A stretch of DNA of 50,632 nucleotides, counting the filler, from Streblomastix strix (lineage: Eukaryota): the NCBI GenBank assembly GCA_008636045.1. It is 3 parts of 3 records of this genome, joined end to end, with 100 filler letters (N's around TTAATTAATTAA, not from the genome) between each part and the next. Parts side by side here need not be neighbours in the genome. Positions count along the whole stretch, not along the records: positions 33,826 to 50,632 come from SNRW01000765.1; 2 more parts are not named here. One strand, given 5' to 3'. Shown here one piece after another: positions 9,443 through 50,632 of this stretch; positions within the stretch are counted from its first letter, which is position 1, and the number at the start of each line of letters is the position of its first letter. The notes beneath the pieces are model-generated. The model was not told where the DNA came from and ran no database searches. It was given only the letters and a program-made list of their open reading frames with translations. The translations under genes and the position numbers were made by a program.

Positions 9443-9463
9443 TTTTGTTTATTTTTAAATTAA

Positions 9464-11505: not shown

Positions 11506-11528
11506 TTTCTTTATTTAAAAATATTCAA

Positions 11529-12449: not shown

Positions 12450-12466
12450 TTTATTCCTCATTTAAA

Positions 12467-12673: not shown

Positions 12674-12829
12674 GATACCCCTCAGAAATTTATTTTTATT
12701 AATATATTAGTAACACTGGAAAATCATAAGGATTAACTACATAATTACTTTACACCATTTACTACTACCATTTGCTGAAATCGTAAACGAAAATGAATAA
12801 TCCTCCGCAGCCGCATACTAAGCTTAATT

Positions 12830-13170: not shown

Positions 13171-13470
13171 AATAAATATCTTAACATGAGTTTTTGCAAA
13201 AAATGTTCTAAAATAAGATTTGAGTAGGAACTTACAACATAATTCTACCAAACATATATAATTCTAAAAATTGAAATTAGTTTTATTATATTTATATATA
13301 TTACTTTAATTTCATTTAAACAAACATTTTAAATTTTTTAGAACTAATTTTATACTTCATAATTTTACACTAACTGTTTCAATAATGATTTCATTTTATA
13401 TTAATTAGTTGTAATTTCATATTTTTATTATATAAAATTTAAAAATTTATAATATATTCATTAAATCTTT

Positions 13471-19900: not shown

Positions 19901-21300
19901 TTGATTTTTCATTATAGACATATTCAAAAAGTTAATATTTACCTTTAATTCTGTAATAATAAGCAAATAATTATTTAGTAGAAAAACTTACTTAGCAATT
20001 ACTTATTTTTTCATCAATTTTGCTTCATATATTATAGGCTAGTGCTGTAAAGAAACATATTTTATAATCTTAATCTAAATAGTAAACTGAATATTATTTT
20101 ACACAATTATCAAGATATGGCATTTTTGCTCCAGTATCTATTAATTTATAAGAAGCAAAGATTACATTAAAAATATTCCAACAATCGATTTTTACTGTCT
20201 TCATATGTTCGTTCCAATAATTCTCTTAACTTTCTGAATATATCTACTTTGAATTATTCCAATGATTTCTTATCAGTTATTGTTGATTATTAATGTTTGA
20301 AAGCATTATCTAATGAAGGAATTCTGGCTGAATATTTATAATTATTTCCATCAAGTTTTTCTTATAATAGAACTCCAAAATCAATTTGAACTTTAAAAGG
20401 AAGTCCTTTGTACGAATTATATACTTTATCTGAATATTAAGACAGTTGCTCTTACTGAGTTAGTTTATTAAAATAATGAAGTTTATAAGTAATTTCATCA
20501 TAAACAACTTCAGCAATTGCTTCATTATTTTTGAATTTACTTACTTTCTTTATTGCTTTAATTGCTTCCTCTTCAGTTTCAACATCACATAATTGTAATG
20601 CAATTTATGATAAATTATTATTTCTTTTTAGGTTATCAATTGTTGAAAATGTGTTAGAGATATCATCTTCATTTTGCATGATTTATTGATTCAGATTATA
20701 CTTAATTTTATTGATTTTGTCTTTATATATCCTATCAACATCAAACTGTTTAACTTTATATTAATCTATATTATCATAAGCATCTAATCTATATTTAATT
20801 ATCTTAAAATAGTCCCCGTGCACATGGACAATTCATCTTATTCATCCACACTATTAGTCAATAACATTAATCTGCTTAATTGGACCGAATCATCAGTCTT
20901 ATCTCTTACTTTTAACATCATATTCATGATCAGCGTACCAACGTTGATTAAGATGTCAACTTTCAAGTCAATCAGAAAACGTTTATTTTTCTCTATTTAT
21001 TTCAATTTTTTATTAGCCAATATACTAAATTAAAATTATTTAATAGAATATTGATAATTCATCAATTTTCTCAATTTTTCATATCTCGTTTATACTCTTC
21101 ATTAAGGTCATATCGTATACGAGGAATCCAAAAATCATGTTTATTTGTGATCCTTCAACTATCGATCACCTTCAATTTCCTCAATTAACCTTAATTTTTT
21201 AGACATAATTTCCATATAAGATATTTTCTCTCATTCATCCTTACGATTAATCATTTTTCATTCATCATATATCATTGACTAAATCTTGGAGATCCTCACT
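16914..21300 (-). pseudogene. polB: Second, heavily decayed Polinton-type pPolB including the N-terminal region; 3'-truncated by the contig end, 5' boundary approximate
   Basis: NICFFTALAY, VCPHCHD, ExoI IIYDFETL, ExoII GWNSSRFD, motif A ALDCNSLYPS, motif B YKLIINASYG, motif C VLADTDSIY. Multiple frameshifts and TGA. Confidence 0.9.
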
Positions 21301-28294: not shown

Positions 28295-31200
28295 ATGACT
28301 TCACCAATTACAGCTAGTGTTCCTCTCCAAATTGGTGATGTAATCAAAGATCGATACACACTACTGAAATAAATTGGAGCAGGAACATATGGAGCTATTT
28401 ATGCAGCGCTTTATAGAGGCAATATGGTAACCAGGCTTGTTGCTATTAAATTTGAGAAGGTGACCCAGAAATACTCACTTTAGTACAATGAAGTTGCATT
28501 AATGAAATTGTTAGCTGGAAGTTCACATTTTGCCAAATTCTATCGATGTGGGACCCATGAAGGATTCAAATTTGTCTGCATGGAACTTTTAGGGCCATCA
28601 TTAATGTATAAATTAACACGAAATAGTTAATATTTCTTTCTATTATTATTATTATTATTTATAGATAATTAGTAAATAGAAAACGTCCATATTAATTAAA
28701 CTTATTTCAACTTCTGAAATTTGGCGTATAAGCAATAAAATGCCTCCAGGAACTGCATAAAGCAGGATTTGTGCATCGAGATGTAAAACCAGTTTGATTT
28801 TCTTAATAAATTTTATATTAAAATCTATAATTATTTATTTTTTATTTCAGGAGAACTTTGTGATAGGAAATACTAAGAAAACAGCAGGTACTATATACTT
28901 GATTGACTTCGGATTGTGCAAAAGACTTCCAGTCGTTGATGGGAAGATTGTAAAGGTGTTATTTAATCATCTTTTTTTTCTGTTTCTTATTCATTTATTT
29001 ACACAAATAATTTCAGCCAACAAATAAAGGATCTTTCAGAGGAACTTTGAGATATGCATCTCCAAATGGACATAAATTATTGGAACTCGGAAGGCACGAT
29101 GATCTGATAAGCCTATTGTATATGATGGTTGAATATTACACTGGAAAGTTACCTTGGTCAAATACTGAGGATATAGTTTGATTTTTTTATTTTTTATTTT
29201 AACTATTTTATATATTTAATTTTATAAATTATTTATTAATTAGAATGAAATACTTCACTTGAAATAATAAAGTATTGGCGGCCGTCTCTTTTCGAAGATG
29301 CCCTTATAATTCCAGGAATTCGAGAACCACATTTTCCAGTTGGACTTTGTAGATGAACCAGATTATAAGAAACTAATTGGATTGATGTTCCTTGTTGCAT
29401 ACAACAGCAAACTTGATTTGAATAACTGGCCATTTGAATGGGAAGAAGAATTGAATCAACAGAGAGAAATTGTGCGTCATAGATTGAATTCAGGCCTGAA
29501 TGAATCTCTGTTTCAATCGAGAAATGAAACAAGAAAAGAAGATAATAATATTGGAAAAGTTAATATGAATAAGAAAATGAATGTGATTAATGATTAATAG
29601 ACACAAAAATTAAATCATATTGTTGGAAATATCAATTTTGAAGATAAGATTAATTATGAATTGACAAACATTAACCTTCTTAAAGAGATTTAAATGTTCA
29701 ATATGATGATAATTAAATAACAGCAATAATAACAACACACTCTGAAACATAAGCAAATTCAGTTTTAAAGATTAATTGTGCAACATTATTAATAGAAGTT
29801 TAGAAGAAGATCATCACAGAAATCTTAATAACAATCAAATTAAGACTATAAATAATAGATTTCATCGAAGGATGATCGCCTTTCACAAAGATAATAAGAA
29901 ATTCAATAATTAAAGAATTCAATCAATATGCCAATATTACAAGTTGCTTAATAGAATAAAATCTCAATTTCAGGTGAATAAAAATTAGTTTTTTAAAAAT
30001 TGAATCATGAAAAGAAGATCGATTAAGACTCGATTGCTTCTCATGATGAAAAATAATCAGAAGAATCTCTATTTTAACTCATTTAACAACCACAGATACA
30101 AAATATTGATGAATAATTAAAACCTTAAATTCCTCATATTGAAGTTCATACTCCAGTTTTTATTATTCAATCGAGTAATAAATCACCTTTGAATACTAAT
30201 TTATCATCATTTAATTAAACATAAGAATAAATTCAAGATTCAATTATTTAAGATGTTTAATTAGAAACAGAATATTAGCAAAATATCAATAAATAAGTTT
30301 TTCCAAATGCAATTTATCCTTTGAAGCGATCAGTATCAGATATTCAACTTTCTCCAAAACTGTTGGAATAGCATTAATAATAATTAATTTAATAAAAACT
30401 TAATAATAATGAAATTTAATTTGATTAATTGCCAATGAATTTAAATATTGTGAATAATAAAGATAACTAAATACTTATACATTCAACATCAACATCATAT
30501 GATTAAATTGAGATCAGAAATTAATTAAATAATCCTATTGATGATGAAATCAGTAATTAAAAGATTAATTCTCATAATGAAACAGAATCAACTAATACAA
30601 CAAATCAATATAAACAAATACCAACTGAAGAAGAACAACATATGATGAAACCTGCTTTCCTTGAGAAGGAATACAGCATCAATTCGCCACAGACAAATTT
30701 CTCTGATTTCAAAGAATCTGAGCAAATATCACAATCGTCTCATCAATCGTCAAATTAATCTTTTAATTAATTCTTGAACACATTTCATTCATTAAAAGAT
30801 AAGCACTAATATATTTCACTATAAGATCAGCATTAATATTCTTCATTGAAAATTCGACATTAATACTCTTCTTCTAATATTAATCGTCATTATCGTACTG
30901 TTGTTAATCATGGATTAGATAAATTAAATATAAATAATAACAGCCCCATATCAAAAGAAACTAAAGTTTAAGAAGAATCTTCGGAAACGACAATAAAAAA
31001 AGAAAATGATTAAATCAATAACAAAATTCATTATCAATCAAACGTTAATATTAAGAGATCGTAATCAAACGTTGATGTACAATAAATGAAACAAAATGAC
31101 TAAATTAAATCCCCAATTTAATATACCCCTAAAAAATACCCAATATTTGATTCAAACGTATAACCAAAACCAATTGAAGTTAAGATCCACGATAATATCA

Positions 31201-32390
31201 GCAAATAGCAAAGTCCACAAATACGAACATCTTCTCCATAGGGAAGTTTATAATCCAATTAGAGTATTGTTGTTAATTCTCCATTCAGCACAAATCTATC
31301 TCAGTAAAGTATTGTAACTCCTTTATCTGTGAGTCCATAATCAATTTCTCCTTGTAGAAGTCCTTCTCCGAAATAAATTGATGCTAATGTTGCATTTCCG
31401 TATAAAACTGAAGAATACTAAATATTTAATTAGATAAAAGATAATGAATAAATTAAAGAAAAGAAAATCGAAGACCAAATAATTGAAAATAACTAAAACA
31501 CACTTAGAAGTAATGCAGAATTTAAAGTAGACTAATATAATTATAAATTAGATAAATAAGACTTAGTTGATTAAATAATTGAAAAATAGTAAATTGAGAA
31601 TTAATTAAACAAAAATGAAGTATATTAAATAAATATCTAATAGAAAAATTAAGAAATTATAATACAAAAGGATTAAACTTAATTAAATAATGATATAAAC
31701 GGATCTTCATTTTATTCTTAAGTATATTAATCTTCTTCATCTTCATGTTCATCTTCTTCTTCATCTGAATCAACTTAAGATCTTGATAATAAACATTAGT
31801 AAATTAATGAAAAATTATTCACTTATATTAATAACAGAAATCCAATTTCTTTCTTAATCAATTAAAAAAGTACTGAATCATTAGAATAAATATCTTAAAT
31901 TATGGTGAGTAAAACAGATTAAACGGAACAAGTTTAAGATTAATAATAAATATCTTCAAGTCCATAATTAAGTGATAATAATGCAATTCAATAATCTGAA
32001 TAAGAAAATCCAGACAATAATCAATCTCTCTAATAAACACCCATTTCGATGTTAAATAATTATCTGTAATTAGACTAATCTGAAATGAACTCAAATTCAA
32101 GTACTGATTCAATATCTATATTTCTTGATCTCATGAAAATGCAAGTTGGAAATGATCATCAGGTTCATCAAATCGTTTCCAGACAAATTCCATAGACTTA
32201 ATTATCAGAAATTCCAGAAGCTTAATCTACTTAATTAATGCAAATGAGCGAAGATTAAAATTCGGATAATGAAAAAGAAAAAGAAAATGAAAGATATTTG
32301 AATTAAAATTAAGTTCAAAATATTTGGAAGGAAGAAGATAATGCAGATGAAGAGAATAAAATATCAAAGATTGATAAAAATGAATTTTGA
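28295..32390 (+). CDS. Casein kinase 1 / tau-tubulin kinase family protein with long Q/N/S-rich tail (~1282 aa); exons 28295-28605, 28665-28791, 28851-28955, 29017-29175, 29244-32390
   Basis: IGAGTYG, VAIKFE, MELLGPSL, HRDVKPEN, IDFGL, FRGTLRYAS, GRHDDL, LPW, EPDY. Four GT-AG introns with consistent phases. Confidence 0.92.
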
Positions 32391-33825: not shown

Positions 33826-33952
33826 AACAGCAAATGTGCAGCGCTGTTCCTCACCGAAACAGCAGTGCATGCCCATATCCAATATTGGCATGCACAGTTG
33901 GTATGTTTTTTAATTAAAATTTATTAAAATATATATATATTGAAACTTAACT
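33826..33952 (+). repeat. 127-bp direct terminal repeat, identical to 50506-50632 (circular or collapsed tandem contig)
   Basis: AACAGCAAATGTGCAGCG...GAAACTTAACT occurs at both ends of contig 3. Confidence 0.97.
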
Positions 33953-33972
33953 TATATTTTATTTTTTTACAG

Positions 33973-34086
33973 GCTGAACATATCATGCGCCTGTGCTTCC
34001 ACAGGCCGGGAGTGCAAATTCGCGAACGCCAGGATGCTGCTGCGGTCGAGCAAGTTCAATAGCAACCATTGGTGATGCTGAATTGA
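33973..34086 (+). CDS. Last exon of the C2H2 zinc-finger gene that starts at 50236 (wraps through the junction)
   Basis: TTTACAG acceptor, then AEHIMRLCFHRPG...LVMLN-TGA, in phase 0 with exon 2. Confidence 0.75.
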
Positions 34087-34291
34087 TGCCGCTGGGCACC
34101 ATGCGCTGATTTTTATTTTTATTTTAATATAAACACCAATTTTACTCGCACATGCACTTAATAAATACTATTTCACATCAATAAATACAATCATCATATA
34201 ATTTTAATTTATTTTATTGTATTATTCAGGTTTATTTGTGAAATGTCGCACGGTATATAAAAAAATTAAAAATCGCACAGGACGCTCGGAT

Positions 34292-35643
34292 ATGTCAATT
34301 ATAACGGGTGACCATATGTAATAAGATGGCAAATTACGTATTAAACCTAATCCAAGTATATATATTATAATAATAATTAATTTGGACATGATTAACACTT
34401 TTTTTTTAAAAATTTGCAGATTTCTCACGTACACCTATAATTTAATCGTCATCCTCATCTTAATCACCATTTATTAACACTTCAAAATCAATTAAACATA
34501 AAAAAAAACCTTTGGTATGCAAAATATTATTTACAAATCAAATTAATTATTTTTTTTATTAAAATTTCACAGATTCACAGTGATTTCAGTGATGATGACA
34601 TGGATATGAATGTTGAATCTGAGCCTGATATGCATACAAATAAATAAAAGAAGAAATATATATAATTATAATTAATGAGTGGTGAAAAAGGCGAAAAAGG
34701 TGAATATGATGAAGATGATTTTAAGAAGTAGATGAAACAGAATGATAATGTCGCGTCTGATGATGATTAATATGAATCGAAACGCAAATACAGGTCATAG
34801 ATGATCAAAAGCCCAGTTACTAGGTCCTAAAAAAAGAAATAAAAGCAAATAAAATTGGAATAAAAGATTTTGAATGGCATAAGCGAGATCGATAGCGATG
34901 AAATGCTGAGGTTGCAGATAATAAGCGCGTCTGTGGGTGATATTGAGCAGCCCTTGGTGAGCAAATTGTGCAAATGCGTGTTTTCGCTGCGAAATAAGCT
35001 GATCGATGGCCTGAAGCAGCTTCTGATCACACCTGAGGAACTGTCAAACAAGATGAGCGACGAGGAGACATACTGCAATGACTAGTCGCTTTTCGCATAC
35101 CCAAACCTCGACGGTGTCGGCTACATATACGCTATTGGCTGCCACAGCGGGCACTACTTGCTGATGAAAGCGGATCTGGTCGCTCACTCCCTCTCATATG
35201 CGGACACATAGCGCGATTGCAGCGAAAGGTCGTATATTTTGAGCTAATTCTGCTAGTTCTTGCACGATGCGTGGGCTGTGGGGCACGGGGCGGGTAGGGA
35301 GTTCCCTTGGCACTGGCTGTTCAAAGACGAGGGGCGCTAAATGGCTAAGATGTGGTACCAGCCGACGCAGCTGCGCAACTTCCTGCTTCGCCACGCTAAA
35401 AGGCTCCGAAACAAGTTCACTTCAAGCAAGGTCAGCGGGATGTACGCGCTTATAGCGCTGGACTACCTGATGAAGGACGGCTGCGACGAAGCGCACATGC
35501 CAAGCGTCGATTTGGGTGATTCTTTGAAATAAACAATATTATAGCGCTTTTATGCTGGTGAGCTTGATATTATAAATATTGATTATAAAAATGAGCGCTT
35601 ATAGCCAAATTTATTGGGTTAAAAAGAAATTTAAATTGATTGA
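34292..35643 (+). CDS. Ulp1/SENP-like (clan CE) protease-fold protein, 403 aa, catalytic Cys apparently replaced by Ser; exons 34292-34337, 34420-34514, 34573-35643
   Basis: Phase-consistent splicing. ITPEELSNKMSDEETYCNDQSLFAY resembles ITxxD..WLNDEIINFY. HYLLMKADLVAHSLSYADT has the same H-to-D spacing as HWCLAVVDFRKKNITYYDS. KVSGMYAL resembles DCGMFAC. Confidence 0.62.
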
Positions 35644-36395
35644 AATAAAAAAAAATTTTTTTTATTGATTGTGCGCGATTTTAATTTATTTTTTAAATAA
35701 TAAAAAGCTAACATATGGTATAAATTATAAATGCGACATGATAAGCTGAAAAAGCGTTAAAATAAAAAATTTTGAAAAAATAGTCACTTTAGCGTTTTTT
35801 TTAAAAAAAATTTTTTTTCTCTTCTTCTTCGTCTAAGACAACATAAATTTTTTCTTATGTTGAATGCTTTGATATGAACAAGCTCAATCTTTTCAAGAGC
35901 AGCTTTGAGACTGAATGATCAAATAAGATATTTTTTTTTCAATTGTCCTGCTTTCTTCTCTGCATCTTATAAGGTTAATCTCTATATAAAGATTAATTTC
36001 ATATTAATCCAATCTTTCTCTATATTCTTTTTTTTATAAATTTACTATATAGTTCATTCTTATAATTTTTTCCAAATTTGTATAAATTATTCTAAAAGAA
36101 ATAAGAAGGTTATAATCTTTTTTTAATTTATTTTTATAATCAATTCTAGGAAGTAATTATATTTTAACTTTTAAGACTAAACAATATTGAGAATAATACA
36201 GATATATGAATAATTATATGAAAAAGAAACTATAATAAAGTCAGTGAGTTCAATATATATACAAGAGAGAGAAAGAAATGTATAGAAGTTTAAAGAAACA
36301 AAATCTAAACAAATTAAAGAAAATTTAGAATCAATTCTAAGAAATAACTCTGCTTAATCCACTTCTGTTAAAAATACTTGAAATATTAACAGGAT

Positions 36396-36455
36396 GAAAT
36401 TTTAATGAAAATTGCGCCAGAAGAAATCTCCAATAAAATGTGTGATGAAGAAATT
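36396..36455 (+). pseudogene. Remnant of a paralogue of the Ulp1-like gene
   Basis: Translates EILMKIAPEEISNKMCDEEI versus KQLLITPEELSNKMSDEET in the 34292 gene. Confidence 0.55.
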
Positions 36456-37156
36456 TAATAATCAATCAAATTAATTATTTTTTTATAAAAATTTATAAAA
36501 TTTAAATATTTTTTCAAAAATTACATCCTATGATAAAAATAATATTTTTAGAATTATTTTGATCTAATTGTTATTAAAATCTAATGTATGGTTGTTGAAA
36601 AAAATGAATTTAATTAATTTTTAAAAATTATTATTTAAAATATTTAATTTCTTAAATTTTATAAAAATTTTAAAAGTCATCATAATTTATTAAATAATTT
36701 CTAAATTTGTTGATAACATCATAAGATAAGTTATTATGTTTGATATGGTCTAATTTTTATAAAATTCGGCTGTGTGGTTGTTGAGCAAATGTTAATTTAT
36801 TGTTTTTTTAATGACTTGTACTAAAAAAAATTTATAGACATATAGGAAAATTTTTTTTTTCTGAATGTTCGCTTTCTTTCTACCATCATGTAGGTACCCT
36901 ATAAGTGTCCTAGCCTTTTTGTATTACAAGGGTTGTATGTCTCTTTGTTGTAAAGATATTCCTTTTTTTCTAAAAAAAATATAAAGGTTGTAGTGGACTT
37001 TGTATTATACTAAATTCAAATGGTAAGTGAAGTGCTTTCAGTAGCGTATTGGGGTGGAAGACAAGTAAAAAGTGATACGCTAACGGTATATAAAAACCGG
37101 TTAAAAAGCGAACAAGTGACATGGTAAAAAGCGGCACTAAATGGCCTAAAATAAAT

Positions 37157-37860
37157 CGCTTTCTGACTGCTTTCTGAAGCGCTTTTTGCATACTTTGTAA
37201 ACGCTTTTTGCATTCTTTTGTAGACGCTTTTCACATACTTTTGTAAACGCTTTTCACATACTTTAAACTGCGCTTTTCGGGTGTTTCAGAAATTCTGTGT
37301 TTTTGTAAATGACGCTTTTTGCCTGTTTCTAGAGACGCTTTTTCAATGTTTCAAGGACGCTTATTGCATGTTTCTGATGACGCTTTTTGAGTGTTTCAAG
37401 AGACGCTTTTTGGATGTTTCCAGCTGCGCTTTTTCAGTGTTGATAAGACGCTTTATACATATTTCTGAAGACGCATTTCGAGTGATTCTACGACGCTTTT
37501 TGCATGTTTCTGAAGACGCTTATTCAGTGTTTCTAAAGCGCTTTTCTCATATTTTAGTGTTAAGCTTTTCAGAAATGATACATACGCTTTCTGACTGTTG
37601 CAAATTGCGCTTTTTATGTTCTACTTTTGCGCTCCTAGAATGAATGGATTTTCGCTTTTTAAGTGTATGTGATAAGCTTTTGAGTTTCTTATATTAGTGC
37701 TTTCATGGAGATTATGAAGAGCGCTTTTTGGAAGTTTTGGAGAATATTAAGAGAAGCGCTTTTGAGATGATATAATGACGCTTTTTATGGTTGTTATTAA
37801 TGCTTTTCTGGGTGTTTGAGATAGTGTTATTCTAGAAGGTTTAAATTGCGCTTTTATTGT
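37157..37860. repeat. Degenerate 22-23-bp minisatellite (consensus ~CGCTTTTTGCATGTTTCTGAAGA), >20 units, downstream of the RT ORF
   Basis: CGCTTTT recurs every 22-23 bp from 37157 to ~37680 and more loosely to ~37860. Confidence 0.85.
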
Positions 37861-38362
37861 TATTATACTTACTTAAATTCTTTTTAGCGCTTCTTTGTCT
37901 TTATTAGTGTTGCATTCTAGCGCCATGTAATAAGAAGCTTTATAAATAGGTCGCTTTTTGAAGATGCTAGATTAATTATAATTGTTATTTTAATTAATTA
38001 GTTATTTTTAGCGTTTATTCATTTTTAAGAGGATGAAATTAGCTTTTGTATTGTTATTATTATTATTCATTATTTTAGAAGTTTTAAAAGCGTAATAATA
38101 GTATTATTATTATTATAATAGCGCTTGAATAATGGTGATGGAGATTTGAAGAAGCGCTCAAGTTGAGTGTTTTGTAGGAAGAAAGGAAGTTGGATATTGA
38201 TAATATGGAAATGCGCTATTAAGGAGAAGTTTGTTTCATTCATATGTGATCAGCGCTTTATCTCACTGATCAAATGAGATATTGTTTGCGCATATTCAAA
38301 TCAATGATTGATTGCTTTCAGATGCGCTTTTTGAAAGCTTAGTAGAAAGCTCAGAAGCGCTT

Positions 38363-41300
38363 TCACGTTTTGTGCACGCGCCGGCCTCCGGGTGATCCCG
38401 GTAGTTTGATGCCCGAAGCGCTACCCTGGAGAGTTGACGCTAGGGTGCTGTTTAGAAGCGCTTGTTCCTCATCTATGCGCTTCTACTTCTCTTGAAGATC
38501 CTTTAGCGCGGTTGCTAATCCGCCGCTTGCAGTTTCGATGCCAGTGACTGGGTCAATGGTGAATTCCTTGTTTATTGGAGTAAGACCCGCTAAACAAGCT
38601 TCATCCGTGCGTTGAAGTGTTTTGATGCGCAATTTGCGTTGTGTGGATTACGCTCTCAGCTTCTCATTGAGTTACTGCGAAGCTCGACCTTTCTAGAGGT
38701 TGTTCAATTCGCGCTAAGCGCTTTTGTATTTTGTTTCCTTCACTTCCTCATGATCGCTAGAGCTCTCTTCTTCATCTTTGTACTCGCTATCTGAGCTCTA
38801 TTTATTTATTTCTGCATCGCTATTTTGGCGTAGTTGCTCTTCTTCTTCTTCTTCTTCCATTACTTCGTATTCTACTTCGTCCGGAAGCTGCTTTTCCATT
38901 AGCGTGTTTTGTGTATGTTGTGGTGGCTAACTCTCAGCTTTATGTAGAGCAAAAGCAGCTTGGCTCGTGTTGCGCTAGGAACGCTTAGTAGTGTTAGATC
39001 TTTGAGTGGAAGTTCTTGCAGGAGTTGCTGGGCGCTTTTAGCTTACTTTCTTGTTCTTTTCCTGCTTTTTGGCGAATATTTTCTTCGCTTCTACTAGCTT
39101 CTAGTTTATAGCGCTTTCTTTCGCTCCCATAGTGACATCAGCGCTTTCTTAATATGAATCATCATTATCATGGTATGATGATTATGATGATGTGGTGGAT
39201 GATTTCGAGCTTACAGGTTGGGAGATTGGTGAAAGCGGAATTTGAATGTCATCTTAGATTGCCACAGGAGAATGATGTAACAGTTTTGGATTAATTTAAG
39301 TTTGTTATTCATTCTCAAGCTGTGACAGCGGGACAATGGCGGTGTTAGTAGCTGGTTGTTTTTGTTAGTGCTGATCGCGCTTTTTAGGCACTGCAGGTGT
39401 GGTGGCAGGCTTTGAAGCGTGAACAGAATCAGATGGAGGAGCAATAGCGGGCATTTAAGGATTAATTTAAGTTTGCTGCTATTACTCGATCATCTATTGG
39501 GCGGTTGCGCTTTCCGCTTATGATGGAGGTTGCTATTGAATTATTAGCACATTCAATTGCTGATTAGTGACAGAAACGCTATTTTGGATGGATAGCGTGT
39601 TTTAAACGATGCTTAGGGCGGGAGGGAGATTCAATGGTGGTGGAGGCGGATCAGGCGGATCAGGAGGCTTCTCCTCCCTAAAGTATTCGCCATCCTTTGT
39701 GATCTCCATTTGCTTAGGGCCAGTAGCGCGTGGGATCAGGTATTGTTATTACTCTGGAGTGGGCAAAAGCGCTTCAACCTCAACCGCTTCTTGCGCTTTC
39801 TCCACTTGCTTTGACATTGCTGAAGGTGTGTATGAGAAGTCAGCTTGTTTAAGCTTTAGATCCCTTGCAGCTTTCCTTTCCGCTTTTCTGATGTCTTGCT
39901 CAAGGCTCACATTGATTGGCTTCTCTTTCGTGCCGCTTTTAGGATCTTGGAGGATTCCTTGGCCTTTGTTTTTCTTTCCTTTTTGGAATGTAGCTTTCTT
40001 AGCGCTTTTGGGAGTTTCCTTTTCAGCATTCTGTTGTATCTGCTGTTTATGGTGCTTTTGAGCGACTCTATTTGCGATTCCAGAGTCCATAGACGCAATG
40101 ATGTGATCATCTTCATATAGAGGCTTGAAAGCGTGGATCAGTTGCGCTTCTTAGATGGTCTGAGCTACTGAAGCTAGTTATTCGCGCTCGCGAAGCTCAG
40201 CGTTGTAGTTCTTTTGTGAGATCGCATGAATTTAGCCGCGGAAGAACGCCCTCATTCCCGCATCCGCTTTCTTGATGATACACATCAACTCCTTCTTGAA
40301 TTAGCTATAGTTGATCTTGATCCCGTGTATCTTAGCGGATTGCTTCAGAAAGCCCATTAGCTCTGCCATGTTTGGCCCGAAAGTGCCTCTAGTAGTTACG
40401 CACACGCCAATGCACTTGAAGTTGTTGTAGCGTTCGAAAGCAGCGTACTTTAGCGCTTTCTCTTTTTCAGCGCTTACAGCTAGCGCTTGAGGATTCATTC
40501 CACGTGCAGTTAGCGCATCCTCATCTTTGATCACAAGGTCGAACGCTGCTTTACATGCGTTGCCATTGTATGTATGATCTAAGCCGCCAAGAAGCTTCCG
40601 CTGGAGATCGTAGGGCTGTCCAAGCGTGTCCCATGTAAAAGTCCAATCTGGGACGATGATTTCCGTTTTCCCATCCTCCGCGTACTTGGCGATCCCCGGT
40701 TTCTCATATTCGATGAACAGCTTGGGGATTTAGCGGAATTCGTCGATGATCACGCGCTTTCCGAGTGTATGGCGCGTTGTGCGCATTGGTCCGTTGCATT
40801 AGCAATTAGTTGGGTGATTTTGCTCCCATTTGTTACCACATAGGGGACATTTAGCGTCTGCGTTCTGCCTCGTAAGCGTGACATATTCGTGTTTCAGCTC
40901 CATGTCACCTTTCTTTGACAAAAGCGTATCATCTACCGCTTCGGTGACTTCTGGGTCCAGTAAGCGCGTTCTTGCTGAACTCCCAACGCATTAGTAGTGT
41001 GCTCCACTCAGACTACCCAAAGCGGAATATTGCAGACGCATGGCCAGCTTTTTATCTTTTACTTTGGCCTGATTTATCAACTTAGCGCGCTTTTGCTCTA
41101 TTTCGATCATCCAAAGCGCATGCTAGCTGATCTTCTTCTTCGCTACTTCTAGCTTTTGCTAAGTTTCATACCATTGCAGGAGAAATTCGAAAGTGCGAGA
41201 TGAGTGATTAGCGCTTTCTCCTATCTGTTCGATGCGATCTTGCCATCCATCCATTACGTTGCGAATGTGCATGATTCCGGCACATTGCAGAAGCTCCACT

Positions 41301-44300
41301 AGCGTTGTGTCTTGAATGATTCGGTAGTAGGATGACATCAGCGCGGGTTGTTCGATATCGAGTAGTGCTGGAATTCCCAACCCGCCTTTCTTGATGGGTA
41401 AGTTCATAACTTCTGGCATTGCATCAGATTGCGCTTAAGTAGCGTTAGTAACCTTGAGGTAGTGTTTAGTATCAAATTCTACTAGTAGATCGTGGCTTAC
41501 GCGCGTTAGTTGAATGAAGCGCGTTAGGCGTGATACTATGCAAAAGCGATCTACATTGAGGAAATTTTGCGTGTAGAGTAGGGATGATACATCATCAGCT
41601 TAGAGCGCTTTGCTGGCTATTTCGATGAATTCCTGATCGCGCACTTCCTGAGATTGAGTAACAGGGATTCCGAGCACCTTCAGGAACGCTTTGGCTTGAA
41701 TGCGACCTTTATCAGTTACGATGTCGCCTTCATTCGGGTTTATGGTTCCATTCTGCACCCATAGCGCTTAACACTTATTATAATTGAATGACATGTGGAT
41801 GGATTCCAATTCGCGCTCAGCAAGCTCAATTAGCGCTTTTGCTTGCTCTCTGGATGATGGTAAGATGAAGAGATCATCCATGTATGAGAATATGCCAGGC
41901 AACCACTCTGTATAGTTCCCGATCGTTCGTGGCTGCGCTTTTTCTTCAAAGTCCCTATGCTTAGCTTCAATGATCGCGTTTGTTAGATTAGCAGTGATGA
42001 TCGCGAAGTTTGCTGGCGACATAGGGTTGCCTTGAGGAACGCCAGTTGTGCACTTGATCTTTAGCGCTTCAGCAGTGGTGAAATGAAACAGCTACTGCTT
42101 TTAGAAGTATTGAGCCATGTACGACAGCCCAATGTCTGACATTTGCGCTTTTGCAAGTGCCTCCATCAGCTGCTACCAGTCTACGTTGTCAAAGGCGCCC
42201 GAGATGTCAGTTTGGATAATTATCAGCTCCGATTTCGGATTTTCCAAGATAGCGAGTTTGGAAACATCGATAGCGGTTTGAAGCGTTGCGATAATGCGCT
42301 CACCGCCCCACGGCTTTCTAACTCCGTTCTGCGTTTCCGGGATGCTCTGCTTATACGCGCTATCTTCTAGGTGCAGAATGATCTTTGCCAGCAGTTTGTC
42401 GAACGCTTCTGGCACACAGATCGGCCGCGGCTTTTCTTTCCCAGGCTTCATTATTCCGATAGCGGATCCTACGAACATGCACTTTGGGAAGAAGAGCGCT
42501 TTTAGCATAGCAGAGAAGAATTCATATAGAAGGCGGGCATATGATTAGTTCTTGTGCGTCAGAAGCTTGATTGCGTCCACGTTCCATCCTGACGCACCCG
42601 CCGCAGATCCGCTTTTCAACGATGAGATCTGCTTCATGAAGAATTCGAGTGTGAATTTCTCGATTAGCGCTTCTGGGTGAGGAGCAGCTTCATCTGGCTT
42701 AGGCTTGTTGACTACGCCATTTCCAGTTTGCTTATGCAGCTATTAAAGCTTTTGATAAGTCTCCTCGCACTGTGGAAGTCGCTCAGCGCCTTGTGCAGTG
42801 TCGAAGATGTGCGCTGTAGCGTCGCCAATTTATCCACGCGTGCATTTAGCGTTCGCTTGTGTGATAGAGGATTCGGTTATTTTAAGGATTTGCTCTGCTG
42901 AGATGATCGATTTAAGTTTCCCAGTTTCTAACTCTGCAGAGCGGTATCTGATCACTTCAGCGCGTTTAGCAGCCAATTAGCGCTTATGAAGCGGAGGTTG
43001 GAGGAACGCTTGCTCTCCTATTGCTTAAGCTTGTTCCGCTCCATTGAACTCAAAATCTTCAGAGTCGCTATTTTGTTCTTCTTCAGGATCGTTTTGCATT
43101 TCTTATTAGAAGAACGACTGAGGCGCTTTCTTGGGTTTTTCTTCTTCTTTCTTCTTCTTATTCTTCTTCTTCTTGCGCGTGAAGCGCATTCTCTGTCGAT
43201 CTCGATCAGCGTCTAGCTTATCATGGATGAAATGCTGCACTGAGAACAAAAGCGCGCAAGACTTTTCAGCTTCTTCTCTTCTTAGCGCTTTATCTTCCTC
43301 ACTAACCGCTAAAGCTATTTGTTCAATGTCGGTGATAGCTTATAGAAGGAGAGGAGCGGATAGCGATTGCAGGATGTTGCAATACGAGGTGTTATCGCGA
43401 TCGTTCCAATAAGTTCTTCCTCGTATCGCTGGATCGATGATTTACATATCCTAAGCGCTGATTTCGAATCCGTATGGTTTGAATATCGCTTTGCGATCGT
43501 GATTGATGGGAGTGATGATTGGTTGCGCTGTTGGCTTGTCGATGAAGGCCAGCGCTTATGCATCGTGCTTGTTCCACATGAAGGTGTTAGTTTTCACCTG
43601 AGGAGTCGCTATTATGTTTCTTGGAGCTTTCATTCCACGCTATTAGCTCTCTGGGAGTGGTGGAAGCGGCAAGTTCAGTACAGGCATATGTTGAATAACC
43701 GCTTTTAGCCATTCATTATATTCGTGGAAGATTGCTGTGTTATCAATGCGTGCAAAAGCGTATGCACCGTCTGGATCATCATCATCCTCGTCATTTTCAT
43801 TATTGGATGATGAATTAGTAAAGAAGCGATCACATTCATTCTTTCTATTCTTCAATTAGCGCCTGTAGATGTCGAAATCCATATCATTTAAGAAATACTG
43901 GAAGATGGGGATATGGATTTGCTGATCCGCTTTTGAGCCTCCTTTTAGACCTTTTGAATGATCATTGCTGTTGTCGAAGTTGATGGCTATCTTTTTAGCG
44001 TTCATGGTGTATGTTTTGCCATCGATGATTGAAGAAGTTAAAACTAGTGGAGGAACTAGCAGCTTAGATGGAAGCGCGCTTTTCTGGAGTTCCAATTCTG
44101 CGCTGTGTTGTTCCTGATGGATTAGCTCGCTTAAAGTCATTCCATTCTGGTTTGCATTGATATTCAGCGCTTCCCAGCGTCTCTGATTGCGATCCTCATC
44201 AGAAGCGAGCTCAAATAGTAGGATTGGGCGGATGAAGCGCTACCTTGTTGTAATTTCGCCTCCTGATAGCAGCTTGCATTACGACATCGTGAATAAGCGC

Positions 44301-47300
44301 GATTCCCAGATACGCTTATCTTCGTTATCTCGCACAGTAAGCGCTGCTCGTTCGAATAGTGAAGAATCTAGCGCTTAGCGTAGTTCTACCAGGTTGTGTC
44401 TTCTGACTAGCTCTCTTATCAAGTCGATCGGGAGGGGTGCATCAAAATCAGCGGGCGCAAACAGCTCTATTGGTAGAGGGAATGGGATCTCGTAGAGCTT
44501 AGCGCCGTAGAAGCATTGGTTGAAGATTGTTCTGATGTTCGAATATACGCCTGATAGCGTCTGAGTAGCAAGGAAGGATAGTAGTGCTAAGTTAGCGTAT
44601 ATTTCTTCTTCCGTGAACGGACTTCCAGATATGATGTCCTTAGCGCGGCTTGGGGTTACGCCCATTATGTATAAGATTCCGCCATAATGTGTTGCCTGCG
44701 CTAAAAGCCGTATACAGTTGGCTGTGCGCGCTATTAAGCGGTAATCCGAGAACAGAGGATCCATTCCCGCTCTATCTGGTAGCGCGAGTGTTGATAGCTA
44801 TTGGATCTCGAGGGTAGTAGCATCTGGGTTCTGCATCTTGACTTCTTTCACGTACCAGGAGTTTAGCTCAGGTTTCCACTCTTTGAGGAAGATTAGCGCT
44901 ATTTCAGCAGTAGTGTGAGGAATTCGTAAGCTTCTGTTAGCAGCGCTCAAGATGTGCGTATGCTAAGTTGCTGATAGCGGGAAGCGCTTTTCTAGCTCGT
45001 TGAGTACTTTAGGATGAATCCATTGTTTCTCTCTCGCTTGAAGCGCGAATTCGAAGAGCTGAGGTTGATTACGCGCTCTTCCTAGTACCAACGGAGACAT
45101 GATGATAGCGGGCGCTTAGTTGGTAGTGCGCCAGTCCTCGTGGATCATGTCGTAGCGCTCAGTGTCCCAATCCGCGCATCTAGCGTTGCGATTGCACTCA
45201 TTACATGTGTATGTCAATTGGTTCGGGACTCGAAGCTTGAATGGGAGCTATGGATCCACTGCTTCATCTTAGATCGGTAGCGAAGTGATAACAGTGTAGT
45301 GGAATATCCCATTCTGCGCTTAATGGACTCTTCTCGTAGTGATGATGCCACCTTCTGGCTTTCTAGGCTCCTATGGCGTTTCAACAAGGGTAGCATCGCC
45401 AAATAGCTCAAATTAGAAGGGTGTTAGATACCGCGCTAAAGGCATGAAGAGAAGCGGCATTGGAGGTTTAGGTAGTGGAGGAAGTGGCTTTATGTTAGCG
45501 CTTTCAAGTTCTTACTCTTAGTTTTCCCGCTCTAGCTCGTCGATCTCATCATCCTCCTCGTCGTGAAGCGGTTTATATCCTCTTCTGCGTTCCAGCTCTT
45601 CTTCTCTCTCTTTCCTGGTTTTGCGCTTTTTAGGCGCTTTATGAATGTTCTCAAGCTTTGGAAGCTTTAAAGCGATTGGGAATCCCATGATTTGTAGATC
45701 CTGCTCAGTTACAGCGGAAGCTGTGTAAGTTAGCTAAGGGAGGTTGTAGTTACATGAGGAAGAAGATGATGATGATTATGATAAAGGTGAATTTAGAATT
45801 CCAGGTCCCATGGCATTCTCATAGCGCTTTTAAGAAGATGAGTTACCATAAAGCGCTAAGCGAGCTTCTAGAGGTTTGAATATAGGCTATGAAGCGTCGA
45901 AATCCACTTAAGATGAAAGTGGAGATTAAGTTCTAGATATTGAAGGTGAGAAGCTGAAGACTTGCTAATTTGGTGAATTATATGGATTCAAAGTCTAAGA
46001 AGCGCTTTAAGCGATGTACTAATTGACGCTCAGCTATTCTCCACCCATTTAGCGGGTAGGAGAGGATTACAGTATCGATTGCTATATAGATGGAGTTGAA
46101 GGAGATGAAAAAGTCGTATCATTATTAACTTATAGCTAAGAAGAAGCAGAAGAGAAAGAACATCCGCTTTGAGATGATACGATTGCTCTATCACTCTGAA
46201 TAGGTGTAGTGACAGCATCTGAAGCTTACTGCTGCTGTATCTCAATTTCGGGTTAAGGATCAGGTTAAGCATCAGTATCAGGTTAAGCATCAGCATCAGC
46301 ATTGCTTAGCTTTGGAGTTGTCTAAGCGCTTAATGAAGGTGATTTAGCGCTTTAAGGATCTTATTCAGCGCTTTATGAAGATGACTCAGCGCTTTGTGAA
46401 GTACTATCAGAGACTTAGCGTGCTTCTTAGGTGATAAGCGCGCTTTGTGTAGAAATCTCAGTGATTTGGAGCGCTTTTTAGGTGATAAGCGCGCTTTGAG
46501 ACGAAGATGATTATGCTTATGCATTATTAGTGATGTTCTCGGAGCTACGAGGAGTTTGAACATGATCATGATCATGAAGTTGTGTATGTGATTGATGATG
46601 ATGTTCAGAAGCGCTTTACTCCTATATAGTAGAAGAAGAAGAAGAAGAAACTGCGGTTTCATTTGTGTTGGGCGCTAAAGTAGATGAATCTTTAGCATTT
46701 CCTATCGAAGCAGTAGATACAGATGGCTCTAAGCTAGATTTAGCTTTGGAATGAATTTTGCTCATGAGGGTGGGATGAGAAGATAGACCAGCGTTGCTAA
46801 GCTAATTCTCGCTCAGAGCGGGAATTTAGCCTTCTGCCACCAGCTGAGCGTGCTTCGAACGAGTGACTACGTTGCTCAGCTGTTGTGCTCGGGACGATGA
46901 TGACGTGACACGCTTTGCAAGAGTAGAGGCTAAAGCCTGCTGCGAAGCTCCCGACGCCGCTTCCGCGTTCTGCCCCGCGACGCTCGATACTGCTTCCTTG
47001 GGCTCGCTGATCAGCACTCGTGTGCGCGAGTCCCCAGCGTCGTTCGTCGTGTGTGAAGTGCTTTGGACTGCGTCCGACCTCTCCGTCGGACATGCACCGC
47101 CGCCAGGAGCGCCAAAACTCTGCGCCGCTCCCTCTCCTGGCTTCCCGCTATCGGCACCACCCTCGATAGCGTTACTAAGCTGAGCTACCCCAGACTCGCG
47201 GGTAGTCAGCACCGGAGTTTCGGAAGAGGCCACAGCACTCGATTCCGCCGGTTTTCCCGAAAATGTCCCCAAGCTCCCGGGGCCAGTGCCCGCGTACTCA

Positions 47301-47359
47301 GTTGATAGTGTTGAGATGTTACTGCCACCAGGGTCGAACTCTCCGCGCTACTCACTCAT
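38363..47359 (-). CDS. Giant single-ORF non-LTR retrotransposon protein, 2998 aa (RT + CCHC knuckle + restriction-like endonuclease; CRE-like)
   Basis: I scanned the frame and found no in-frame TGA between ATG 47359 and TGA 38363. Motifs: AAGASGW, KPRPICVPE, QNGV, DISGAFDNV, GVPQGNPMSP, YMDD (41873-41884), VLGIP, LPIKKGGLGI, CPLC-x8-H-x3-C, RH..E..PD..D..EKEKALKY, TTRGTFG. Confidence 0.95.
46240..46510 (-). repeat. Coding tandem repeats in the N-terminal low-complexity region of the RT ORF (DA/QP repeats and ~21-bp QSA repeats)
   Basis: CAGGTTAAGCATCAG repeats, and AGCGCTTT recurring at ~21 bp in 46325-46500. Confidence 0.6.
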
Positions 47360-47669
47360 TGCCGCGAAGCTTAATAAGGGGGATACCGCCAAAATTAAAA
47401 ACCCGCCCGGACCTTAATGGGGACAAACCAATAAAAAAATTTAAAACAACCAAATCAACATCATTTCCAATTTTAATAAAAAAAATCAATTCTATAATTA
47501 TAAACAATCATTTTTTATTAAACAAAACTTAAAAAAAAAAACGGCGTATAGTCCGTCCTTATTTTGTAAAAAAAAAAATTTTTCGACTTTGTACTATTTT
47601 CGCTTAATTTTCCCATATATGACCTCATCAATAATGTTTTATTTCGTCATATTTAGTAACTATTGACAT

Positions 47670-48719
47670 CATGCACTACAATAATAACAAGCAATTAGAT
47701 ATGTCATGTCAACTGGTTATAAAAATTAAACATATTTAAAAAATTTTGCAAAAAATTAAAAAAATACCTCTGGTGCTCACAGCCTTATTGAATTCATGCT
47801 CCATATTACACTTAATAATGTATATAAATAAATAAATATATCATTTAAATCATTGTCAACATTACTGGATACATACCCGAGATAAAATTGGGAATTTTGA
47901 AATTTGTATCAAATCTACCCAGACTTACCACCAATAATCACGACAACAACCATTAAGCAAATCTACGTTCAATTCTGTATAAAAATTAAATAAATATGTA
48001 TAAATATTAAAATTAAATATAATTCAACATTATTGTAAACATACTCGGGCGCCAAATATGAACCCAGAAAATTCAAATTATCGAAACTTCACTTAAGTCA
48101 CCTTGATACATCAGGGATATATTCATATCACTATGAAACCTATTAATAAATAATTAAATGTATTTAAATAAATAAATTAAATAAAAATAAAATATATTAT
48201 TAACCTTATCGCTTGCAAAATGTCGAAATTTAAATTTTCATTCAAAATTTCCCTGCAAAACTTCACCTCGCCCAGCCATCCCCACCCACCGAATCTGGGT
48301 TGGATAAAGTATAATAAATTAACATATTGGTATATAGTATACATATAAAATATAGTAATACTTTAAATATATATATACGATATAAAAAATTAAAAATTTT
48401 ACCTTTTTCCCCATGTTTGCAGAATTTTCCAGGATTTCATGTATGCTCCCATCAATAACCATCCAGGCAACACTGGGTGACGTTTTGTTTAAAAAATAAA
48501 GAAAAGGCAAAATAAATAATAAATAAATTAAAATAAATAAAATTAAAAGATACCTCGCGAAGCTAGAATGAAAATTAGTCATTTTCGTAATTTTTCACAG
48601 ATTTTGCCCAGCGTCTGTTTAGTAAATAACAATAAATATTAAAAAATTCATTTAATTATTATAAAATATTAAAAATAAACATACTGGAACATGTTCATGT
48701 GAAACCAGTAGTAGCCCAT
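47670..48719 (-). other. Multi-intron transcription unit without a continuous ORF (spliced leader/lncRNA or pseudogene); exons 48685-48719, 48554-48614, 48403-48472, 48205-48294, 48045-48139, 47877-47974, 47768-47810, <=47712
   Basis: Seven AT-rich segments bounded by GT...AG on the minus strand alternate with GC-richer exons. Exon 48045-48139 has TGA in all three frames. Confidence 0.5.
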
Positions 48720-48733
48720 TCGTCGATTCTAGA

Positions 48734-50030
48734 ATGTCAAAACCTAACAAGCAGCCGTGTGCCCAATATCCATATTTATTATAAAATATTTTAAATAATT
48801 ATTATATATGTACACTAGCATACCAAAACAAGGTCAGAAACCACAAAAACGATCCAGGGAGGTGTCAAACCTGGGAATTGATTTAACAGCCGAAGCCGCA
48901 GCACAGGCAGCGCTGATGGACGCACAGTAGTCCGAAGCGGACAGCGAGCAGTCTGTCCAGTCCAACTCTGAATAGCAACAGGAATAAGAGGTATAAAATT
49001 AGAAAAAAAATAAATTTATAAATTTTTACCTTTTTTTTGGGTTTTTGCGCCGCAGAGCGATGAGGGCAGTCAAGAAGCGCACGCTACCAGCGATCATGAT
49101 GACGACACAGCACCGAAGACGCACACGCCACCCACAATTGGCGATCCAAAGCGCTCCGAGATGAAGAAAGATGATCAAAGCGGATCTTCCTCAGATCCTG
49201 CAACTTTGGCAATTCCCCACGCTCCGGGCACGAAAACAATATCGAATTATTCACTTGAAGTTGCTGATGGGATAGTAGAAGGTATATACGAGGTCGATCT
49301 ATAATATATATTAATGAATTGTTATATATTTTTAATAATTTAAAAAATATTAATATTTTAAATAGCTGCCACACTTTTGTTCATTGGGCGCACAAACCAG
49401 CCACCGATCGTCCAGCAGATGCCTGAGTTCGTCGAGCTCTTCGCGGCACAGAAGTAGTAAGCGAAAGACATGATGCGCATGCTTGGGGACGCTGACGGGC
49501 GGGAGCACGTTCCGATAACTAAATTCATAGCGAACTCGACCCAGATGTCGAGGAAGCAGCCACTGGAACCGCTGGTTGTCAACCTGGATGAAGAGTCAAG
49601 CGATGAAAGCGATGCTGTTGGGCTTGGAGTGGGCGCGAGCGGGGATGAAGCTGATATCAAGATGAAAAAGAAGAAGATGAAGCGCGAGATTGAAGCTGAT
49701 GATGACAACAAGGTGAATGAATCTGGCAAAAAGCGCGTGAGGAACAGCAGAAGCAGCAAAAGCGTGGATCTGAGCGCGCTCGAGCGGTAGAACAGCGCTT
49801 TGGAGCGGTTGCAGCAGTCAATGGTGCCGGACGCGGGGGAAAAAGCGCTTACGCTTGAGCAGTAGATGAGTATTGATGCAACTGAGGATCTTCAGAAGAA
49901 AGATCTGCTGAGAAGGATATATAAGCAGCAGAACGAGTTGGAAGCGCAGAAAGCGGCCAACTCGAGCGCGATGGCGGCGATTCTGGCCTTGCAATCGAGC
50001 CAGAATAGCGCGAAGAAGGGTTCAAAGTGA
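48734..50030 (+). CDS. Unknown low-complexity protein with basic patches and a C-terminal coiled coil, 361 aa; exons 48734-48756, 48819-48990, 49056-49281, 49366-50030
   Basis: Three GT-AG introns with consistent phases give MSKPNKQPIPKQGQ...KMKKKKMKR...DLLRRIYKQQNELEAQK...GSK-TGA. Confidence 0.75.
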
Positions 50031-50235
50031 GTATGAGGATTATGTGGGGGAATTTTTAATAAGGCTTTTTTTTTATCAATTATCAAGAATATGAGTTATT
50101 TGCATATTTCTTATGTTCTAATAAAGCAATAACGCTATTTGTAAATTATTTTTGAATTTTTTTTATTATTGTATTAAAATAGCGCGATGGTACCAGTGAG
50201 CAAAAATCAGACCCCATAAAAAGCGGGGGAAAAAA

Positions 50236-50580
50236 ATGTCAACTTTCGCGCAGTTTGAGCTGGACGTCCAAAACGTGCTTGTGTAGCAGCAGAACCACTA
50301 CCAACCCAATGGTAGTAAGTCGTTCAGCAATGAAGCGAACGACCATCGCGGTATGCGCTAAATTTTAAATTTTTTTTTAATTTTTTTTTATCTATTTCTA
50401 GACATCAAATGCAATTACAGAAATTGCAAGTAAGTGATAAAAGGTGACTGGAACTACAAATATCATACGCTGCTTCACCATGGGCAGATGTACTACGTCT
50501 GCCCAAACAGCAAATGTGCAGCGCTGTTCCTCACCGAAACAGCAGTGCATGCCCATATCCAATATTGGCATGCACAGTTG
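50236..50580 (+). CDS. Two-finger C2H2 zinc-finger protein, 135 aa; exons 50236-50350, 50402-50580, completed by 33973-34086
   Basis: CNYRNC-x12-HTLLH and CPNSKC-x12-HIQYWH. GTATG donors. The second intron crosses the terminal repeat. Confidence 0.82.
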
Positions 50581-50632
50581 GTATGTTTTTTAATTAAAAT
50601 TTATTAAAATATATATATATTGAAACTTAACT
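50506..50632 (+). repeat. 127-bp direct terminal repeat, identical to 33826-33952
   Basis: Exact match by inspection. Confidence 0.97.

Follow-up and report, generated by a model that had tools for sequence, protein, structure and literature searches.

Within a 50,632-nucleotide (nt) window of the Streblomastix strix genome (GenBank assembly GCA_008636045.1), which consists of three contigs of ~16.8 kb each joined by N spacers, the third contig (SNRW01000765.1, positions 33,826–50,632) closes on itself as a 16,680-nt repeat unit, in which an intact minus-strand gene encoding a reverse transcriptase (RT) and a restriction-like endonuclease (RLE) lies among plus-strand accessory genes (A, B, and C). 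We incline to regard this gene as the core of a discrete, probably site-specific retrotransposon of ~10.5 kb inserted in a host gene cassette, the cassette and its insert having been amplified together as DNA; the discrete element most likely spans about 47,555 to 37,009 on the minus strand. The original prediction had put forward a giant multi-gene retroelement and had listed a site-specific insertion in a tandem host gene cluster as an alternative. The alternative is now favoured, because a direct repeat around the RT gene excludes genes A, B, and C and because introns are predicted on both strands. From the giant-element proposal, the loop, the intact RT-RLE gene, and the three antisense neighbours are retained, whereas the supposed protection of introns by antisense orientation is not, and the repeat, which resembles a target-site duplication (TSD), leaves the accessory genes outside.

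The repeat unit and its closure are as follows.

33,826–50,505, unstranded: repeat unit of 16,680 nt, looped in the assembly graph; the contig ends share 127 identical nt, and a contig of run X1 spans the junction
50,506–50,632, unstranded: terminal overlap of 127 nt, identical to 33,826–33,952, inside exon 2 and intron 2 of gene B

The start of contig 3 recurs exactly at its end over 127 nt, leaving a unit of 16,680 nt. A separately assembled contig of run X1 (depth 43.9; short side, 207 letters) spans the junction from 50,505 to 33,826, and exon 2 of gene B remains in frame there; on these grounds the overlap closes a loop of 16,680 nt, and a dispersed repeat was rejected. Both the 127-bp overlap and the Cys2-His2 (C2H2) gene reading correctly over the junction had been predicted, and both hold. 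The runs that contain DNA of the unit are termite-gut samples, X1 and X2 coming from the same sample and X3 from another study; X1 may be the source sample, which makes its junction contig non-independent data. The library type of X1 is not on record, and its depths behave as those of amplified DNA; the published S. strix draft was reported to derive from whole-genome-amplified cells (PMC8767320). A short-read loop of this kind may stand for a circle, for an array, or for a cassette flanked by two repeats. The unit contained no rRNA, tRNA, or other gene in an Rfam search, in line with the predicted absence of housekeeping genes, no replicase, transposase, or capsid gene in Pfam searches, and no long direct or inverted terminal repeat or long terminal repeat (LTR) in repeat searches. 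Adjacency to telomeres, raised in the original prediction, found no support in the unit, where none of five telomere-type patterns occurred. Five loose matches to a hammerhead core pattern were seen on the plus strand.

The features of the RT gene and of the element proposed around it are listed below.

38,363–47,359, minus: intact open reading frame (ORF) of 2,998 amino acids (aa) in NCBI table 6, with a low-complexity N-terminus, an ~820-aa family-specific region, RT, zinc knuckle, RLE, and a low-complexity tail
41,759–42,454, minus: RT core, Pfam RVT_1, residues 1678–1909 of the stop-to-stop frame
40,385–40,849, minus: CCHC knuckle and RLE, with near-invariant C, C, H, C, H, D, D, and K columns
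37,009–38,362, minus: inferred 3' untranslated region (UTR), its boundary drawn from the direct repeat; holds a degenerate 23-nt tandem array
36,960–37,008, unstranded: 3'-side copy of the direct repeat, candidate old TSD; read-graph branch at 36,951–36,980
47,556–47,597, unstranded: other copy of the direct repeat, on the 5' side; lies ~200 nt ahead of the RT start codon
44,316–44,345, unstranded: contig break where depth falls from 53 to 38; a truncated copy may have its 5' end here

In NCBI table 6, the minus-strand frame at 38,366–47,485 is open over 3,040 codons and yields 2,998 aa from the ATG at 47,359, with 105 TAA/TAG codons read as Gln. The standard code was rejected for the unit, as long frames are open only with TAA/TAG read as Gln and no frame of at least 300 aa is open in table 1. 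Table 6 is therefore supported by this one 3,040-codon frame together with the code reported for S. strix, in which TAA/TAG encode Gln (PMC10120064). RVT_1 (E 2e-23) was the sole Pfam family found in the frame, and a profile of 42 rows, over which the two Asp residues of the RT catalytic motifs are near-invariant, matched R2 across RT, zinc knuckle, and RLE (E 5e-94). Moreover, the AlphaFold model of the protein had a predicted local distance difference test score (pLDDT) of 91, and its top seven Foldseek matches were all R2. These results confirm the predicted intact 2998-aa minus-strand RT-RLE ORF. By its RT, its knuckle and RLE, the absence of LTRs, and its multi-copy occurrence, the gene is that of an RLE-type, R2-group non-LTR retrotransposon. 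Residues 680–1,500 are conserved within the family, gave no Pfam match, and include a conserved CxxC at 761–764.

Other observations concern the composition and 3' region of the gene. A six-letter GC palindrome occurs at ~22-fold over expectation in the RT ORF and at 80-fold in its 3' region (36,860–47,356 overall); the same palindrome is 8-fold over expectation in contig 2. The degenerate 23-nt tandem array (~4 + 10 copies) lies at 37,170–37,545 in the inferred 3' UTR, and the 120 nt directly past the RT stop (38,230–38,349, minus) fold strongly (z −4.3 against 40 mononucleotide shuffles), forming a candidate 3' UTR structure.

The limits of the element were approached from a direct repeat and from read depth. 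Local alignment revealed a degenerate direct repeat of 42–49 nt flanking the RT gene and its UTRs, with the accessory genes outside; its two blocks (18/20 and 13/15 identities) enclose a gapped stretch, its copies are each other's best match among 1,666 window tiles, and its score was reached by 2/1,000 and 0/1,000 shuffles. A TSD search confined to 36,780–36,862 gave AT runs only. The X1 contigs break on the direct repeat, at 36,951–36,980, and a variant contig (depth ~14), read from the X1 depth sums, starts there and carries changes at 36,979 and 37,007. Depth of the unit's own contigs in X1 was 59, 56, and 53 over 37,414–44,345 and then 38–39 past the break at 44,316–44,345, compared with 44–45 over the cassette (ratio of 37,414–44,345 to the rest of the unit, 1.35); two further contig breaks showed no depth step. 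The extra depth is confined to about 36,970–44,330, as expected from a 5'-truncated copy. Depth and repeat fit a ~10.5-kb element that is flanked by an old duplication and has one additional 5'-truncated copy, the copy number being taken from one comparison of read contigs (X1, X2, and X3).

A second line of evidence came from a region overlooked in the original prediction, lying between the RT start and gene A on the RT strand. All splicing described here for the unit is predicted from sequence signals.

47,713–48,823, minus: region D, with eight predicted GT-AG introns (55–108 nt) and seven exons (43–98 nt); best frame with 2 TGA

The gaps of region D are AT-rich and bounded by GT...AG, six of the eight having the donor found in the plus-strand introns. 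In all, eight introns are predicted on the minus strand of the unit and six on the plus strand, with a common consensus. A strict intron filter retained 7 minus-strand versus 3 plus-strand introns in region D, against a maximum of 5 in 300 shuffles, a loose control in that shuffling destroys the block structure. The seven exons total 516 nt (GC 0.39), and a protein gene was rejected as not significant, the best frame, with 2 TGA, being matched by 432 of 2,000 shuffles. Region D is, on these sequence signals, probably a spliced transcript on the RT strand, non-coding or decayed; in the oxymonad Monocercomonoides, introns are reported in UTRs, 552 of them in 5' UTRs (PMC8767320). Since introns are predicted on both strands, the template cannot be a spliced RNA that covers the entire unit; whichever strand an RNA copy of it came from, the introns of that strand would be lost unless the RNA remained unspliced. 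The original proposal that introns are kept because they are antisense to the genomic RNA consequently fails on the eight predicted introns of the RT strand, and its account of three spliced genes, all on the plus strand, is right for A, B, and C with their predicted introns and incomplete as regards the minus strand. The starts of gene A and transcript D adjoin at 48,808–48,916 in divergent orientation and may overlap, which suggests a bidirectional promoter.

The relatives of the RT gene were also compared. A word search gave 11 matches among 7,998 candidates, and a profile-free search gave 1,152 proteins at E ≤ 0.001 and 24 at 1e-30. Twelve S. strix proteins on 11 contigs (~30–79% identity to the window ORF) were recovered, some in near-identical sets; thus, the RT belongs to a multi-copy S. 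strix family. In a quick tree of 44 rows, with long branches and no named CRE protein among its rows, the window RT fell inside a 17-row clade of unnamed, often large proteins (support 98 in the Shimodaira–Hasegawa-like approximate likelihood ratio test). P0027, P0029, P0034, P0035, and P0024, which are large RT-RLE proteins (1,692–2,490 aa) encoded in other assemblies, group with the Streblomastix family in a supported clade. Neither the RT ORF nor its 16 clade relatives have a C2H2 pattern (0/17 rows, five of them short fragments), versus 8/27 of the other tree rows. Five of the seven members of the distant 2,490-aa cluster lie on contigs just 0.8–1.0 kb longer than the ORF, and such contigs leave these distant relatives without room for cargo. 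The contigs of the gene B paralog (9,898 nt) and the gene C paralog (2,977 nt) match none of the 11 RT-family contigs by size, and contig sizes together with locus tags point to RT relatives and B and C paralogs on separate contigs. Scans for the relatives' DNA yielded pattern matches (571 + 596 in metagenomes, 1 + 44 in viruses, and 31 in prokaryotes), of which none was confirmed. No paper on oxymonad non-LTR elements was found by a search of titles and abstract starts, with most subscription literature outside its range.

The accessory genes, all on the plus strand, are the following.

48,808–50,030, plus: gene A, acidic/charged protein of 321–357 aa; start at 48,916 or 48,808; predicted introns 48,991–49,055 and 49,282–49,365
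50,236–50,580, plus: gene B exons 1 and 2, with two Cys2His2 patterns; predicted intron 50,351–50,401; paralog P0021
33,973–34,086, plus: gene B exon 3, after predicted intron 33,901–33,972; in frame over the junction
34,326–35,643, plus: gene C, resembling Ulp1/Peptidase_C48 and predicted to be inactive; retains His and Asp, with Ser in place of Cys and the preceding Gln missing
36,411–36,494, plus: scrambled relic of gene C, 14 codons at 79% plus 32 nt of the second intron at 94%

The exons of gene A stay in frame over its two predicted introns, and the protein, a putative coiled-coil protein in the original prediction, matched no Pfam family past the cut-off. Gene B (135 aa; exons 50,236–50,350, 50,402–50,580, and 33,973–34,086) keeps its frame and both Cys2His2 patterns, and its search gave one paralog, P0021, among 2 candidates. 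The likeness of gene C to Peptidase_C48 was indicated by Atlas features (0.95) and by a structure model (template modelling score, TM, 0.56–0.61); a single-sequence AlphaFold model with pLDDT 35 was set aside, and a PDB sequence search gave chance matches only. One paralog of gene C, P0003 (68% identity), was found among 249 candidates. Compared by eye with the S5 Fig alignment of PMC4640811, both proteins keep the catalytic His and Asp; at the Cys position, gene C has Ser and P0003 has Gly, where all 22 rows of that figure have Cys, and both lack the Gln ahead of it that is present in the 22/22 Ulp1, NeSL, and Utopia rows. Lacking the catalytic Cys and Gln, gene C, like P0003, is therefore a predicted pseudo-protease. 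Its frame is open through both proposed introns (34,312–35,640), so that these two introns are dispensable; the frame breaks with the nearest acceptor and is kept with the next (34,580). The scrap of gene C at 36,411–36,494 points to DNA-level shuffling.

These genes offer little reason to regard the unit as a "deconstructed" RLE retrotransposon whose zinc-finger and Ulp1 modules became separate genes, as had been proposed: such a history is not needed, because the clade lacks C2H2 patterns, distant relatives lack room for cargo, and gene C lacks its catalytic residues. The GC content at third codon positions (GC3) is 0.56–0.72 in most coding exons of A, B, and C, 0.43 in exon 2 of A, and 0.20–0.35 in the ends of C, compared with 0.39–0.52 in the RT gene and 0.28 in the one kinase exon of contig 2. 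The accessory exons are indeed mostly richer in GC than contig 2, as predicted, and in GC3 do not resemble the RT ORF, with which the prediction had grouped them; the unit is GC-rich, yet the neighbours are without the GC3 signature of the RT gene.

Reads also revealed a sister locus, related to the non-coding segment beside the 3'-side repeat copy.

36,851–37,095, unstranded: non-coding segment, of which 36,859–37,095 is kept at ~87% in a paralogous locus; ends at a minus-strand A10 run (36,851–36,860)

X1 contigs at depth 890–916 match 36,486–36,519, 36,859–37,095, and exon 1 of gene B, compared with 55–60 for the RT-core bins, and in X2 the sister locus stands at 6.1 versus 2.4–4.4 for the unit. 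A copy number of ~900 was rejected for the sister locus, as it exceeds the unit only ~2x in X2. By its sequence, the locus is a diverged cassette that lacks a close RT; a more distant one could escape detection at 80% likeness. A structured RNA at 36,850–37,100 was rejected (folding z −0.3 and +0.4; no Rfam match), and neither a spliced leader nor another RNA target was matched in Rfam at E up to 2, apart from a chance hit to a long non-coding RNA.

Taken together with R2 and CRE biology, a discrete element would work in the following way. RLE clades are mostly target-specific (PMC4640811), and CRE elements are described as making TSDs and inserting in a repeated gene (PMC12278014). The RT-RLE protein would cut a preferred target with its RLE and copy its own RNA at the cut by target-primed reverse transcription, leaving a long duplication and 5'-truncated copies. 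The target may lie in the final exon of the spliced minus-strand transcript D; the promoter of D, which adjoins gene A in divergent orientation, could drive transcription of the element along with D, much as R2 is co-transcribed with rDNA. Since copying of genes A, B, C, and D would involve no RNA stage, their introns would be preserved. With a truncated second insertion of like orientation as an aid, unequal crossing-over would then yield a short tandem array of two to three cassette copies, which would collapse into one loop in the assembly.

A number of observations weigh against this account. The direct repeat was found post hoc, is gapped, and consists partly of an A run, and one of 422 decoy tiles scores 35 versus 36 for the repeat; for a TSD to decay while the adjoining ORF stays intact, the two must have been inherited together for long. 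At 37,009 there is no poly(A), the one long A run of the unit (36,851–36,860) falling 150 nt past the inferred end. An empty near-identical cassette was not found, as 0 of the 15 joints listed (of 45) skip the RT gene, and accessory depth is never above RT depth. Depth itself is unreliable, the sister locus being ~20x the unit in X1 but ~2x in X2, and this locus matches 86 nt beyond the direct repeat into the supposed element, which leaves no clean empty site. Pieces of the RT and one of gene C in X3 are ~87–95% alike (gene C, 94%) and have a depth of 4–6, which fits joint inheritance of RT and gene C, with no piece bridging them. Furthermore, the GC-rich exons throughout the unit differ from the one host kinase exon measured, and the absence of RT from the paralog contigs rests on gene calls and on queries covering RT residues ~1,400–2,400.

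Several of these points would be explained if the whole 16.68-kb unit were one retroelement with its 3' end near 36.9–37.0 kb and with C, B, and A (antisense) and D in a very long 5' part, its unspliced RNA being copied and added head to tail and the outermost copy being truncated at ~44,330. RT seems to be present in every near-identical unit and no empty unit was seen; the depth ratio of 1.35 equals n cassettes and n + 1 RT halves with n about 3; high GC is common to the unit; the sister locus joins gene B-like and 3'-end-like sequence in the same depth class; and a 3' end near 37.0 kb also fits cargo on the 5' side, for which Terminons offer a precedent (PMC5537684), as Retand does for antisense ORFs (PMC11963269). 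However, eight predicted introns on the sense strand must then escape splicing, the TSD-like repeat leaves the cargo outside, distant relatives have no room for it, the B and C paralogs lie on different contigs, the Ulp1-like gene is without catalytic residues, and no telomere-type repeat occurs in the unit, all of which makes this reading unlikely. Introns on both strands fit DNA replication, and a DNA-level element, that is, an extrachromosomal circle or plasmid-like cassette with zinc-finger and SUMO-protease-decoy regulators (SUMO, small ubiquitin-like modifier), in which the RT was picked up or domesticated and D is a spliced leader, would account for the clean 127-nt closure with no host gene attached, for the diverged sister cassette, and perhaps, through preferential amplification of circles, for the very deep sister locus in one library. 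Such an element is nevertheless quite unlikely, given that the unit holds no replicase, transposase, or capsid gene, that contig breaks with depth steps suggest points of entry or exit, that variant letters (50,344 and 36,979) indicate non-identical copies, and that the RT retains its endonuclease and has many relatives.

The loop may also be an artefact of assembly, in which one cassette between a full-length and a 5'-truncated retrotransposon copy, or an amplification chimera, was folded without any array. Two flanking copies alone suffice for a graph loop, the breaks fall at the inferred 3' end of the element and inside the ORF, and tandem insertions at preferred sites are reported to be common (PMC5932611); yet a single cassette predicts a 2:1 depth step where both observed steps are ~1.4:1, and a chimera is unlikely at depth 44 with a gene in frame over the junction, so that we regard this as the least likely of the readings. 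A broader proposal, doubtful in our view, is that the 16.68-kb unit is inherited and spread as one selfish element, either a giant RLE retrotransposon that moves through unspliced RNA and carries four passengers with introns, placed on both strands, or a nuclear episome, in which the zinc-finger and dead SUMO-protease genes may serve a resident retrotransposon expressed from the eight-intron leader.

The remainder of the window is of different content. Contig 1 (1–16,813, table 6) looks like a Polinton-like virus stretch, with a protein-primed PolB (PF03175, 348–2,216), a P-loop ATPase frame (2,232–3,296), and several long unannotated frames; Polinton-like elements have been reported for S. 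strix (PMC10120064). In contig 2, broken minus-strand frames at 16,914–21,000 resemble the PolB region of contig 1 by eye and may be a decayed Polinton-like insert, which would make that part a poor host baseline. A spliced protein-kinase gene (weak Pkinase match) followed by a low-complexity frame of 1,073 codons occupies 28,295–32,390.

Among known systems, the discrete element that we favour is closest to the CRE clade (SLACS, CZAR, and CRE1/2) and R2, which share a single ORF with RT, CCHC knuckle, and RLE; an internal repeat region, a candidate long TSD, and residence in a repeated gene unit are further likenesses to the elements described in PMC12278014. Unlike them, the window element has an ORF of 2,998 aa with an ~820-aa region that matches no Pfam family and no C2H2 pattern, no poly(A) at its inferred end, and no known RNA gene as its target, and every near-identical unit seems occupied. 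The solved R2 proteins have 1,114–1,390 aa, less than half the length of the window protein, and the one or two zinc-finger motifs of most CRE copies are absent from the window ORF and its 16 relatives. As in NeSL and Utopia-1_TSP, a Ulp1-like domain accompanies the RT-RLE, although it is fused there, and in the unit it is encoded by its own antisense gene beyond the TSD-like repeat, without the Cys and Gln kept in the 22/22 rows of the NeSL/Utopia figure (PMC4640811). Terminons, bdelloid Athena retroelements of up to 40 kb with extra ORFs and 5'-truncated copies, resemble the unit in its large size, its extra ORFs, and its candidate 5'-truncated copy (PMC5537684); they have a Penelope-type RT, a GIY-YIG nuclease, co-oriented cargo, and a telomeric location, in contrast to the RLE-type RT, genes on both strands, and lack of telomere-type repeats in the unit. 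Retand and Grande likewise have accessory ORFs in antisense and, toward their 3' part, tandem repeats, and unlike the window unit they are LTR elements with the cargo inside their termini; the word "intron" is absent from the main text describing them (PMC11963269). The loop together with a 5'-truncated partial copy would fit a head-to-tail array like those of HeT-A/TART/TAHRE and of Giardia GilM/GilT, although the unit shows no telomeric context.

Such arrays are formed head to tail by HeT-A/TART/TAHRE and by GilM/GilT alike, and neither group is known to carry spliced genes. Joint movement of the whole unit, if it takes place, would make it a large mobile element of a new kind; were it a selfish element, the diverged sister unit found in this gut community would rank as the second member of its family. 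Even on a conservative reading, the conserved region of ~820 aa and the lack of a canonical N-terminal finger imply that binding to target or RNA is supplied in another way. If the target is the last exon of a spliced transcript, it would constitute a new target class beside rDNA, spliced-leader, and small nuclear RNA genes, and would bear on site choice by R2-like proteins, which are now used for gene insertion.

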